Origin: Escherichia coli
Lineage (GTDB): Bacteria; Pseudomonadota; Gammaproteobacteria; Enterobacterales; Enterobacteriaceae
Assembly (NCBI RefSeq): GCF_050320075.1
Contig: NZ_CP190018.1
Strand: one strand, 5' to 3'
Length of the DNA stretch: 64,000 nt
Shown: one piece after another, positions 51,186 to 53,670 of the stretch
Layout of the letters: the number at the start of each line of letters is the position of its first letter
Position numbering within the stretch: the stretch's first letter is position 1
The notes under the pieces: generated by a model
Told to the model about the DNA's origin: nothing
Seen by the model: the letters and a program-made list of their open reading frames with translations, nothing else
Database searches by the model: none
Position numbers and translations under genes: made by a program

Positions 51186-51362
51186 ATGACTGATTTTGGT
51201 TCAACTAAATATAACGCCAGTTTTGAAGAATGGCATGAAGTGTTAATGGACTATGCCGGGTTACGTGGTGGAAGTGCCGCCGATGCCGAAGCATGGCGCG
51301 ATGACTATGAAGCTGGAAAAACGCCTGTCGAAGCATATTGCGATGAGTGGGGTGATGAATGA
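51186..51362 (+). CDS. Small acidic protein (58 aa), below the ORF-track cutoff.
   Basis: ATG 51186 gives MTDFGSTKYNASFEEWHEVLMDYAGLRGGSAADAEAWRDDYEAGKTPVEAYCDEWGDE. Its stop overlaps the next ATG. Confidence 0.4.
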   Translation: MTDFGSTKYNASFEEWHEVLMDYAGLRGGSAADAEAWRDDYEAGKTPVEAYCDEWGDE

Positions 51363-51457
51363 GCAAGTATGAATGCGAGACGCTGGCAACTGAGAATGCG
51401 AAGCTGAAGACAGCACTCCCTCAACTGTTCGGGAAAGCTGAAGGAGCGACAAAATGA
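51359..51457 (+). CDS. 32-aa ORF bridging two ATGA overlaps.
   Basis: MSKYECETLATENAKLKTALPQLFGKAEGATK, supported only by the coupling geometry. Confidence 0.25.
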   Translation: MSKYECETLATENAKLKTALPQLFGKAEGATK

Positions 51458-51675
51458 GCAAGCCAACCGACGAAGAAATAGTTCGGGTGTTGGAAGAACA
51501 CGGGCGCTGTATGACTTACGTCGTGACCAACTGGCTTAGGGATAAATATCGCACACTCAAAACGGCATACGTTTTGCGTCGTCTAAAGAAACTGGAGTTC
51601 GACGGGAAAGTAAAGCGTGTTACCAGTTCTTATATAAGACAAATTTGCTGGGAGGCAACCAGTGAGCAAGATTGA
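51454..51675 (+). CDS. Small winged-helix-like DNA-binding protein.
   Basis: 73 aa; EIVRVLEEHGRCMTYVVTNWLRDKYRTLKTAYVLRRLKKLEFDGKVKR has a wHTH-like pattern. Confidence 0.45.
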   Translation: MSKPTDEEIVRVLEEHGRCMTYVVTNWLRDKYRTLKTAYVLRRLKKLEFDGKVKRVTSSYIRQICWEATSEQD

Positions 51676-52261
51676 CTATCAGGCACTGCGTGATGTGGCA
51701 GTGAAAGCCGGTGAAGATAAGTGGCAGGCTAAAAAAATAAACGGTGATTTTTTCGTTATTCGTCAAGGTAGTTATACAAGACAGCATGGCTACACATCGT
51801 ATCAACCCATTGCGGAGATTGATTGTAAGCCAGTCCGGGATTTTGTTGCCAGGGCTAATCCGGCTACCGTGCTGGCTCTGCTGGATGAACTGGAAGCAGC
51901 AAAACAGCATATCGCCGAGTTGGAGTCTCGCATCGTCACCGCTGCCGCCGCTGACGTACTGGCTGAGCGCCAGCGTCAGGTCACCGTAGAGGGCTGGACA
52001 CCTGAACGTGATGATGAATACACCGATGGGGAACTTCCGAGGGCCGCGAGCTGTTATGCGCTAATGGCATGGCGCGAGGAGTGTCTGAGCGATGGTGAGT
52101 ATACCGCCAGCCAGAAAGCCATTCCGTATTACTGGCCATGGGATCCGGCATGGTGGAAACCCATCGACCCGCGGTGTGACCTGGTAAAAGCTGGCGCGTT
52201 AATTCTGGCAGAAATCGAACGCATCGACCGTGCCGCTGGCATTCGCACCAAAGGAGAGTGA
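51662..52261 (+). CDS. Phage Ead/Ea22-like protein with a DUF550-like C-terminal domain.
   Basis: ANPATVLALLDELEAAKQHIAELE is the Ea22-family hallmark. The C-terminal VTVEGWTPERDDEYTDGELPRAA...YWPWDPAWWKP resembles DUF550. GTG start. Confidence 0.6.
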   Translation: MSKIDYQALRDVAVKAGEDKWQAKKINGDFFVIRQGSYTRQHGYTSYQPIAEIDCKPVRDFVARANPATVLALLDELEAAKQHIAELESRIVTAAAADVLAERQRQVTVEGWTPERDDEYTDGELPRAASCYALMAWREECLSDGEYTASQKAIPYYWPWDPAWWKPIDPRCDLVKAGALILAEIERIDRAAGIRTKGE

Positions 52262-52262
52262 T

Positions 52263-52778
52263 ATGGCGTTAACACACCGCGAACTCTGTCAGATTGCGTA
52301 CAAGTTCCTTAAGCGCAACGGGTTCAAGGTTTGTTTTCATGACCGCTTTATAGCTGTAACCAGTACCGGAGAACAACCAGATGCTATGGGATTCAGAAAT
52401 TCAGCATCATGCCTGATAGAGGCGAAGTGTTCTCGTGCTGACTTGTTGGCAGACAGAAAAAAGCGTTTTCGTAAAAATCCGTCTCTTGGAATGGGCGACT
52501 GGCGATTCTTTATTAGTGAGCCGGGAATTATTTCAGTTGAGGATTTACCACCTGGCTGGGGATTACTTCACGTTGTTAACGGAAGAGTACGGAAAGTACA
52601 TGGGTGGCCCAGGGGTAATTGCTGTTGGGGTAATCCTGACGATAAGCCATTTACTGGAAATAAGCAGGTTGAATGCGATTACATGTTATCTGCATTAAGG
52701 CGAATGGAGTTGAGAGGGCACCTTAATGAAATATATGACGGTGTAATTGTTAATAAGAAAGAAGGAAACGCGGCATGA
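52263..52778 (+). CDS. PD-(D/E)XK-type nuclease-like protein (MmcB-like).
   Basis: EQPDAMGF...CLIEAKCSRADLLAD fits a D...E-x-K motif. 171 aa. Confidence 0.45.
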   Translation: MALTHRELCQIAYKFLKRNGFKVCFHDRFIAVTSTGEQPDAMGFRNSASCLIEAKCSRADLLADRKKRFRKNPSLGMGDWRFFISEPGIISVEDLPPGWGLLHVVNGRVRKVHGWPRGNCCWGNPDDKPFTGNKQVECDYMLSALRRMELRGHLNEIYDGVIVNKKEGNAA

Positions 52779-53188
52779 TCACTATTACCAAAGAGCGACT
52801 GCTGACAATCAAGCAGTGGCGCGAAACATACGGACCGGGTAGCAACGTTGTACTGCCAGCAGAAGAAGCGGAAGAACTGGCACGGATTGCACTGGCATCG
52901 CTGGAAGCGGAACCGGTGGCGTGGATGTGTGATGACGAAGATGGTCGTGAATATAACGGTCATAACGAGTTTTCTTATGGAAGACGCGGGATTCCCCTTT
53001 ACGCCGTCCCGCCAGCGCCGAATGGATTGGTTAAAGCCGTGGCTTTCTATGAGCAGGTTAAACGTGAAAATCCGCCAGTTGAAACGGGAGCATGGAAAGA
53101 TGCCGTTGACTGGGTGCTTAAACAAGCTTGTCAGTCTGTAAACACTGGCATCAATGAAAGAAGAACAATTGAAGAAAATGACGATTGA
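52775..53188 (+). CDS. Hypothetical phage-type protein.
   Basis: 137 aa, with ATGA coupling to the upstream gene. Confidence 0.5.
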   Translation: MITITKERLLTIKQWRETYGPGSNVVLPAEEAEELARIALASLEAEPVAWMCDDEDGREYNGHNEFSYGRRGIPLYAVPPAPNGLVKAVAFYEQVKRENPPVETGAWKDAVDWVLKQACQSVNTGINERRTIEENDD

Positions 53189-53240
53189 GCTGGAAGCTGC
53201 AAAAAAGCGCATTGCTGAACTGGAGGAGCGTCGGTCATGA
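53154..53240 (+). CDS. 28-aa Ea22-motif mini-ORF, possibly a fragment.
   Basis: MKEEQLKKMTIELEAAKKRIAELEERRS. Its stop overlaps the next ATG. Confidence 0.25.
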   Translation: MKEEQLKKMTIELEAAKKRIAELEERRS

Positions 53241-53452
53241 GAAAAATCAGTGGAATGTTGAACCTGGAGAAGGCCAGGATGCAGTTGCATGTTTTGTTAT
53301 CAGGACCGGTTCCTGCAATCACTCCGATGGCGCATGCCGTGGCAATAAAAGTTGTGCTTGATGCTCTGGATGCGAGTGAGCGGAGGGTGGCAGAACTGGA
53401 ACAGGCCTGCGCTGCCGCTGGCATTCGTATCAAAGGGGAACAAGTGAAATGA
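53237..53452 (+). CDS. Hypothetical phage-type protein.
   Basis: 71 aa ending AAGIRIKGEQVK, similar to the ...AAGIRTKGE end of the 199-aa Ea22-like protein. Confidence 0.45.
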   Translation: MRKISGMLNLEKARMQLHVLLSGPVPAITPMAHAVAIKVVLDALDASERRVAELEQACAAAGIRIKGEQVK

Positions 53453-53670
53453 AACTGAAGATGCAGGCAATGGACGGCCCGGTGATTATAGAAAGTAGTG
53501 ATGTGACACAGTTTTACCCTGACCATGAAAGTGGCGGGGAACTCACAGCTGTTGAGTACCTTGCTGACGGGGGAAGAATCACCGCGAGGGTGAGGCACTC
53601 TTTTTATCAGGTTGCTGCGGCACTTGCCGGGGCATGGCGTGCGGATGATGCGTCAAAAAGCGGTGGGTGA
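53449..53670 (+). CDS. Hypothetical small protein.
   Basis: 73 aa with ATGA coupling. Confidence 0.45.
   Translation: MKLKMQAMDGPVIIESSDVTQFYPDHESGGELTAVEYLADGGRITARVRHSFYQVAAALAGAWRADDASKSGG

Follow-up and report, generated by a model that had tools for sequence, protein, structure and literature searches.

By shared genes and gene order, the closest known systems to the locus described here are the exo-xis ('ea') region of lambdoid phages and the 'hea' operon of phage P7. In the exo-xis region of lambda and Shiga toxin (Stx) phages (ea22, orf60a, orf61, orf63, orf73), an Ea22 gene, whose product combines a coiled coil with an exchangeable C-terminal domain, precedes a tightly packed one-strand series of small open reading frames (ORFs) that are non-essential and highly diverse. 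The genes of the region are described as early and non-essential and as tuning the lysis-lysogeny decision (PMC7093339, PMC10834534). Ea22 itself forms tetramers, promotes lysogeny and varies in its C-terminal domain (PMC10834534). The variable 'hea' region of P7/P1 lies downstream of pmgS-pap and contains upf88.3, which is Ea22-like, upf89.0 and upf89.5. Here we analyse a block of nine ORFs at 51186-53670 of a 64,000-nucleotide stretch of Escherichia coli DNA (contig NZ_CP190018.1), which we call the window. The block shares its Ea22 gene and its dense one-strand packing with the exo-xis region and its gene order with 'hea', but it is situated in the replication/partition operon of an integrative and conjugative element (ICE) rather than in a phage downstream of pL. 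Judged from sequence comparisons, we can show that it is a phage-derived mosaic of lambdoid exo-xis/'ea' and P1/P7 'hea' genes in an ICE hotspot. Our preferred reading, to which we give a probability of about 0.65, is that the interval is a phage-origin accessory (moron-like) cargo cassette in an E. coli SPI-7/PAPI-1-family ICE, where it fills a lineage-specific hotspot flanked by the DUF2857/ParE-like genes and by Rep.

The nine ORFs of the original prediction tile 51186-53670 on the + strand, no gap being longer than 6 bp, and the five ATGA overlaps listed there are found at 51359, 51454, 52775, 53237 and 53449. The block and its boundaries are composed as follows (lengths in amino acids, aa; values are E values).

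50931-51179, + strand: left boundary, 82-aa ParE-like toxin-domain gene (Pfam PF24732, 2.4e-19; 'ParE family toxin-like protein' in the NCBI Prokaryotic Genome Annotation Pipeline, PGAP)
51186-51362, + strand: ORF1, 58 aa, acidic (pI 4.1, 15 D+E versus 4 K+R); phrog_519 (C-terminal half), 4.3e-22
51359-51457, + strand: ORF2, 32 aa, in-frame 38-codon deletion derivative of a 70-aa mini-Ea22 (alignment and translation)
51454-51675, + strand: ORF3, 73 aa, basic; phrog_9799, 8.8e-43
51662-52261, + strand: ORF4, 199 aa, Ea22-like chimera with a GTG start; Pfam PF13935 Ead_Ea22, 2.7e-15
52263-52778, + strand: ORF5, 171 aa, intact MmcB-like putative nuclease of PD-(D/E)XK fold; phrog_9263, 1e-122
52775-53188, + strand: ORF6, 137 aa, phrog_660 type; phrog_660, 1e-42
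53154-53240, + strand: ORF7, 28-aa coiled-coil fragment (ELEAAKKRIAELE); weak PHROG match, Ea22-type coiled-coil part, 2e-4
53237-53452, + strand: ORF8, 71 aa, C-terminal fragment of a longer phrog_660-type protein, ending in ...AAGIRIKGE
53449-53670, + strand: ORF9, 73 aa; phrog_5994, 6.7e-26
53671-53930, no strand: 260-bp spacer before Rep, 95-98% conserved in other E. coli ICE variants
53931-55196, + strand: right boundary, STY4528-family island replication protein, 421 aa (PGAP annotation)

Because ORFs 1, 3, 4, 5, 6 and 9 match PHROG families with E values from 1e-22 to 1e-122 and ORF4 also passes the Pfam Ead_Ea22 threshold, we regard the ORFs of the block as genes rather than chance reading frames. 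The predicted count of nine holds for reading frames and needs qualification for genes: ORF2 and ORF8 are remnants, and ORF7 probably is one as well. The peptides that had been quoted (ANPATVLALLDELEAAKQHIAELE, ELEAAKKRIAELE and WPWDPAWWKP) all occur in the translations. Of the two flanking genes, the one first named HigB-like is better called ParE-like, which belongs to the same superfamily, and the right flank is the STY4528-family Rep gene.

The phage content proposed for the block, of the lambdoid early-left ('ea'/exo-xis) kind, is confirmed by gene order and by DNA identities of 96-98% to phages. The order Ea22, ORF5, N-terminal module of ORF6 recurs at this identity in an E. coli prophage, in Stx phage 75/02 and in the P7/P1 'hea' operon. 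The prophage copy of the cassette is found between recT and xis/int, the classical exo-xis position, while the P7 copy follows an annotated C1 operator, of which no counterpart was found in the block. ORF5 and P7 upf89.0 are one and the same 171-aa protein, and the surrounding 52228-52920, which includes the 3' end of upf88.3 and the 5' end of upf89.5, agrees with P7 in 97.8% of the DNA. The wider P7 neighbours (primase-like, phosphatase-like, and a upf89.5 of 432 aa) differ from those of the block, and lambda orf60a, orf61, orf63 and orf73 have no counterpart in it. Segment by segment, the phage relationships of the DNA are these.

51186-51385: ORF1 segment, 86-90% identical to Rac and Stx phages
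51433-51669: ORF3 segment, 98.3% identical to P1-like phages
52228-52925: Ea22 3' end, ORF5 and first 48 codons of ORF6, 96.7-98% identical to P7 (upf88.3/89.0/89.5) and Stx phage 75/02
53024-53230: ORF6 C-terminal part and ORF7, 82% identical to Stx phages
53231-53670: ORF8 and ORF9, no phage DNA match at blastn level

The breakpoints of this mosaic coincide with short sequences that are common to many phage genes. One lies at the Ea22 5' end (51651-51708, the first ~50 nt of Ea22 genes), a second at the ELEAAK codons of the coiled coil in ORF4, and a third at the N-module of ORF6, which corresponds to the first ~150 nt of phrog_660-type genes. The fourth is a 3' end module that encodes ...AAGIR(T/I)KGE. 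The recurring AAGIRTKGE and AAGIRIKGE C-termini pointed out in the original prediction are indeed encoded by a 52-nt direct repeat, at 52206-52257 and 53388-53439, shared by the 3' ends of ORF4 and ORF8. The KGE codons of ORF4 (AAAGGAGAG), located 5-13 nt ahead of the ORF5 start, include the Shine-Dalgarno motif AAGGAG; the C-terminus thus recurs because its codons form the Shine-Dalgarno of ORF5. At such shared junctions, modules would be exchanged with resident prophages and P1-like phage-plasmids through homologous recombination. The GC content of the block, 44-52%, dips below the 53-58% of the upstream ICE genes.

The host element was recognised, from the annotated region and gene tables, as an ICE of the SPI-7/PAPI-1/ICEHin1056 type on the E. 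coli chromosome, the DNA of the window being 100% identical to that of strain YZLc1-3. Its genes run in the order ParA, DnaB-PI, ParB, DUF2786, DUF2857, ParE-like, the block, STY4528 Rep, AcaB-like, TopB, STY4534, Ssb, pil (PilL and following) and TraD, so that the parA-dnaB-parB-...-Rep-topB-ssb module is followed by type IV pilus and type IV secretion system genes. The module is described as conserved throughout this family of ICEs, and ICEHin1056 requires several of its genes to transfer (PMC3739013). The location of the block inside the module, on the same strand and tightly coupled to it, could suggest that the ORFs belong to the replication/partition machinery of the ICE itself, a backbone function that we judge very improbable after comparison with related elements. 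We collected 43 loci of other species with a Rep homologue, 33 of which keep the DUF2857 gene. In these 33 loci of other genera, the distance from the DUF2857 stop to the Rep start has a median of 0 bp (range -202 to 447), against 2996 bp in the window, and none of the nine ORFs is encoded there; in a Xenorhabdus ICE the ParE-like gene stands alone between DUF2857 and Rep. Moreover, unrelated cargo substitutes for the block in sister E. coli ICEs, and its homologues are accessory genes of phages. The proposal that the block is wedged into the ICE replication module therefore stands, since the interval is missing from related ICEs of other genera and is not conserved as backbone.

The variability of the slot became evident within E. 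coli. Among 5426 complete genomes, 34 carry the ICE backbone (counted at a coverage of at least 80%), and about 2100 match the DNA of the block only, in prophages and P1-like plasmids. Comparison of these islands, which had been suggested as a check for a variable cargo slot, gave a positive answer: at least four distinct cargo sets, all phage-type, were found between the conserved flanking core genes. The 2485-bp form of the window occurs in 3 complete genomes only. The commonest form, of 3430 bp (SF-088 type), holds the 70-aa mini-Ea22, a different 199-aa Ea22 allele and three additional genes, which are flanked by a duplicated 145-bp ORF6 5' module. This alternative Ea22 allele is 28% identical to ORF4 of the window, the agreement being limited to the first residues, ALLDELEAAK and the terminal ...AGIRTKGE; the C-terminal domain of this allele contains a Walker-A-like GFTGCGKS (L002:6591-7190). 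Decay of the Ea22 gene in this variant, as implied by 'partial' flags from PGAP, was considered and rejected, as translation gives an intact 199-aa protein. The slot of GF43-type ICEs holds DUF7446, an HNH endonuclease and other phage ORFs, and that of E. coli FHI_NMBU_10 five other phage-type ORFs, one of them Mom-like; in some sister slots it is the HNH endonuclease or the Mom-like protein that takes the place of ORF5. In one ICE copy an insertion sequence (IS) interrupts the Ea22 gene. Since the interval is empty in other genera and its content varies among sister ICEs, we conclude that it is cargo and not backbone.

The original prediction had noted a D...ExK nuclease-like protein in the block, and for ORF5 this was substantiated: D40, E53 and K55 (GEQPD...LIEAK) are invariant across 29 diverse homologues, the AlphaFold2 model (predicted local distance difference test, pLDDT, 85) shows a restriction-endonuclease-like alpha/beta core, and the Foldseek neighbours of the model are phage proteins named 'MmcB-like DNA repair'. 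The accompanying statement that none of the ORFs has an assignable function was thus too strong, as ORF5 can be assigned to a PD-(D/E)XK, MmcB-like nuclease fold. A match to phrog_5429 'DNA repair protein' is weak (2.4e-3). Neither Pfam nor NCBIfam gave a match for ORF5 or for 10 distant members of its family, and no curated MmcB-like sequence model was matched. Sequence-only searches of the PDB with ORF4 and ORF5, with single sequences and with profiles, returned nothing significant. The ORF5 profile matches the MmcB-like PD-(D/E)XK protein SPO1766 (PDB 3dnx) with an E value of 0.21 only; a literature search on MmcB/SPO1766 yielded nothing usable. The family comprises 317 close relatives and 3352 clusters and has no Pfam model. 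In the Salmonella proteins P0093, P0097 and P0107 an Ea22 N-terminal part is fused to the ORF5 domain, a Rosetta-stone link between the two neighbours. In PGAP, ORF5 carries a 'frameshifted' flag and both ORF6 and the alternative Ea22 allele a 'partial' one; all three are uninterrupted and have the length of their phage homologues. For ORF5 the flag is an artefact, because P7 upf89.0 and Stx 75/02 gp71 are also 171 aa long, and altogether the flags look like a systematic annotation artefact for mosaic phage genes.

A further possible reading is that of selfish or passenger DNA. ORF5 and the HNH gene could be free-standing homing endonucleases that spread together with their flanks, the rest of the block being hitch-hiking and decaying passengers of no benefit to the ICE. 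Indeed, the highest identity between elements covers precisely ORF5 with about 35 bp upstream and 150 bp downstream (52228-52925, 96-98%), in GF43, L059 and L060 the same spot, with an Ea22 3' fragment on one side and the ORF6 N-module on the other, is taken by an unrelated HNH endonuclease, and the remnants ORF2, ORF7 and ORF8 together with the IS insertion give an appearance of decay. We nevertheless consider this explanation improbable. The ORF5 family has a constant length, and 50 of its 171 positions are invariant across Enterobacterales, which speaks for a conserved role in the cell or in phages. ORF5 has no evident DNA-targeting domain, and the deletions that made ORF2 and removed three genes preserved the reading frames and the ATGA couplings. 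To our knowledge, MmcB-like proteins are not known as homing enzymes.

ORF4 provides the Ea22 hallmark that had been recognised in the block. It scores 57.6 bits against Pfam Ead_Ea22 (cut-off 27) over residues 2-94, and a coiled-coil joint (ALLDELEAAKQHIAELE) links this N-domain to the helical C-terminal domain (residues 95-199, 51944-52258). The coiled coil is predicted by eye from the heptad-like LLDELEAAKQHIAELESR in the centre of the protein. About 314 E. coli genomes contain prophage Ea22 genes that are 93-96% identical in DNA to the N-terminal half. Within E. coli, the C-terminal half is confined to the 3 genomes that carry this ICE variant, and the two halves meet at a breakpoint in the coiled-coil codons. 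The C-terminal domain has its closest relatives outside E. coli, in a metagenome (88%) and in Klebsiella and Kosakonia (71-74%). Its family has 1544 members, stand-alone or fused, and the AlphaFold2 model (pLDDT 90) consists of three long helices. This all-helical model is unrelated to the C-domain of lambda Ea22, which is mixed alpha/beta and dimeric by nuclear magnetic resonance (PMC10834534), and no sequence or profile match to the Ea22 chains in the PDB was obtained, so that ORF4 is not an Ea22 of the lambda type proper. A DUF550-like domain had been proposed for the C-terminus on the basis of the string WPWDPAWWKP. The string is there, but PF04447 gives no hit on ORF4 or on the isolated C-terminal domain, and a profile comparison with DUF550 returns a probability of 0.3%; a genuine prophage DUF550 protein, used as control, scores 3.9e-42. 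We thus discarded this assignment.

A consensus scan for promoters and terminators detected none on the + strand of the block or the spacer, with counts equal to shuffled expectation. From this, together with the common strand and the translational coupling, we infer read-through from the ICE operon. The block is probably co-expressed with the ICE replication operon: its genes would ride on the transcript of the replication/partition operon, so that their products would appear upon activation or fresh establishment of the ICE. Such a regime would mirror the pL-driven expression in lambda (PMC10834534) and the C1 derepression in P7. By analogy with the exo-xis genes, the products are most likely non-essential and would modulate host DNA transactions and conflicts among mobile elements, rather than act in replication. 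The proposed kit would consist of an MmcB-like PD-(D/E)XK nuclease that acts on DNA, an Ea22-type coiled-coil scaffold with an exchangeable C-domain and a small putative DNA-binding protein.

Several points weigh against this picture of a functional phage-derived cassette. Part of the block may be dispensable passenger DNA, because ORF2 and ORF8, and probably ORF7, are remnants and one ICE copy has the IS in its Ea22 gene. ORF4 may be inactive, because its C-terminal domain (51944-52258) reads ERDDEY where the family has a near-invariant EHDDxH, so that R replaces a near-invariant H. The right end may be older ICE-resident material, as ORF8 and ORF9 are without a close phage DNA counterpart. 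Finally, the co-transcription with the ICE operon is deduced from layout and a crude consensus scan, and the assignment of the products as conflict or host modulators is an argument from context.

The original prediction had seen in the block a reasonable place to look for anti-defence genes. On this account the ORFs would form an anti-restriction or anti-defence island that is expressed on entry into the recipient and guards the incoming ICE, in the way of plasmid leading-region islands. Such islands are likewise made of small, fast-exchanged genes near ssb and parB-like genes on a conjugative element. The slot is a hotspot of high turnover with polymorphic C-terminal domains, as is typical of conflict genes, and the small and very acidic ORF1 (pI 4.1) resembles many DNA-mimic inhibitors. 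In addition, a Mom-like DNA-modification protein (phrog_1384, 6.6e-40) is encoded in the same slot of a sister ICE; Mom is reported to shield phage Mu DNA from restriction (PMC7261163). Related islands of the PAPI-1 type possess anti-CRISPR-enriched hotspots (PMC12629846). These GI-Hotspots 1-3 of PAPI-1/PAGI elements belong to the same ICE superfamily and hold, between core genes, cargo that is often conflict-related and has phage-like content.

We nonetheless regard a dedicated anti-defence island as unlikely. No ORF of the window matches a characterised anti-defence protein, and no recognised defence or anti-defence system was found in the window, with Pfam, PHROGs, NCBIfam and PADLOC; PADLOC and NCBIfam gave no matches for any ORF of the block. 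The block genes are phage-type, and no homologue of ArdA, KlcA, PsiB or another known anti-defence protein was detected, which sets them apart from the plasmid leading-region islands. The published PAPI-1 hotspots (DUF3275-DUF2859, TraG-helicase and TraU-TraC) are at other sites than the slot between DUF2857/ParE-like and Rep, which is empty in the sampled Pseudomonas relatives. The phage counterparts that have been studied, the exo-xis genes, act on the lysis-lysogeny decision and not on restriction. The Mom-like match lies below the Pfam cut-off (21.1 versus 27.1 bits) and outside the window. The gene in question encodes a Mom-like / XF1762-family protein in the DUF2857-Rep slot of E. coli FHI_NMBU_10 (L047:7053-7544) and is a candidate DNA-modification anti-restriction gene.

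A more speculative variant, which we consider rather doubtful, would connect these elements with one another. The Ea22 scaffold with its swappable C-domains and the adjacent nuclease or DNA-modifying gene (PD-(D/E)XK, HNH or Mom-like) could be a shared early toolkit for counter-defence or inter-element competition of lambdoid phages, P1-like phage-plasmids and SPI-7-type ICEs. The toolkit would circulate among them at 96-98% DNA identity and act whenever such an element starts to replicate in a cell. If true, the enigmatic exo-xis genes would acquire a function, and enterobacterial ICEs would have a newly recognised anti-defence hotspot.

The remaining ORFs of the cassette were characterised as follows. 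ORF1 is 86-90% identical in DNA to the Rac prophage and Stx2a phages. Compared with the 70-aa Ead_Ea22 protein of the common ICE variant (Pfam 4.6e-10), ORF2 has lost residues 4-41, and it is left unannotated by PGAP. ORF3 has a homologue in the pmgS-pap-hea region of P1-like phages; it matches phrog_2440 'transcriptional regulator' weakly (9.5e-4) and Pfam winged helix-turn-helix models below threshold, which makes it a possible small winged-helix DNA-binding protein. ORF6 is built from a conserved 48-aa N-terminal module and a variable C-terminal part. P7, Stx phages and every ICE variant share the DNA of the module (52775-52925) at 94-98% identity, the common ICE variant has it in duplicate, and in prophages the same module is fused to DUF550 or DUF551 domains. 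ORF7 overlaps ORF6 by 35 nt, has no good Shine-Dalgarno sequence and is called neither by PGAP nor by other gene callers; it is probably the leftover of an Ea22-type gene rather than a gene. ORF8 corresponds to residues 104-168 of a 168-aa protein of ICE variant GF43, with 94% identity over these 65 aa. In most E. coli variants ORF9 forms the constant right-hand end of the slot; it is absent from the ICEs of other genera. The exact protein is listed in 3475 index blocks of the assembly collection, and in 10 of 10 sampled contexts it stands directly 5' of Rep despite differing cargo on its left.

At the left boundary, the start of the ParE-like gene (50931-51179) forms an ATGA overlap with the DUF2857 gene. 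The gene is also present 5' of Rep in the Xenorhabdus ICE, is absent from the FHI_NMBU_10 variant and has no obvious antitoxin partner. We considered ORF1 for this role, as the two would form an acidic/basic pair with a 6-bp gap, but the ParE-like gene is found without ORF1 in Xenorhabdus and in GF43-type ICEs, and the pairing was therefore dismissed. At the right boundary, an AAGGAG read from the sequence serves as the Shine-Dalgarno of Rep, and the spacer contains a 12-nt inverted repeat, 53711-53722 (CCGCGACATAAA) and 53726-53737 (TTTATGTTGCGG), complementary at 11 of 12 positions, which could be an operator or an RNA hairpin.

Further features of the ICE were noted outside the block. Integration into a tRNA gene is indicated at the ParA end by a duplicated tRNA-Phe 3' segment; the opposite end of the ICE, as well as oriT and the relaxase, lie outside the window.

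44528-44578, - strand: attachment repeat of the ICE, tRNA-Phe 3' fragment (GGGGATTGAAAATCCCC...GGGCACCA) with the 5' half absent, at the ParA end beside the kps capsule locus

PGAP labels this site as a 78-nt 'tRNA-Ser'; ARAGORN and Rfam call nothing there, and an Rfam scan of 44000-57000 gave no matches. A 36-bp tandem repeat of 25.6 copies (91% matches) at 55211-56130 lies directly after the Rep 3' end, overlaps it and yields a repeat-protein ORF on both strands; the ORF at this place ranges from 46 to 321 aa across ICE copies. According to the annotation, ISCro1 (IS66 family) is inserted in an Rpn-family recombination-promoting nuclease gene 3' of ssb, at about 61100-63900 of the window.

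In summary, a mosaic accessory region in an ICE is by itself expected biology, and the block is an ordinary cargo region of a known kind of system. The slot between DUF2857/ParE-like and Rep is, as far as we could find, not among the hotspots described for this ICE superfamily. The analysis corrects the database annotation, in that ORF5, ORF6 and the alternative Ea22 allele are intact and not the pseudogenes flagged by PGAP. It also brings forward two large families that match PHROG families of unknown function and have no curated Pfam or NCBIfam model, the MmcB-like nuclease (3352 clusters) and the helical Ea22 C-domain (1544 members). For work on genes of the exo-xis type, the ICE copy offers a phage-free genetic background. 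The mosaic also shows that a conjugative island of avian and extra-intestinal E. coli has recently shared DNA with temperate phages and phage-plasmids and continues to do so.

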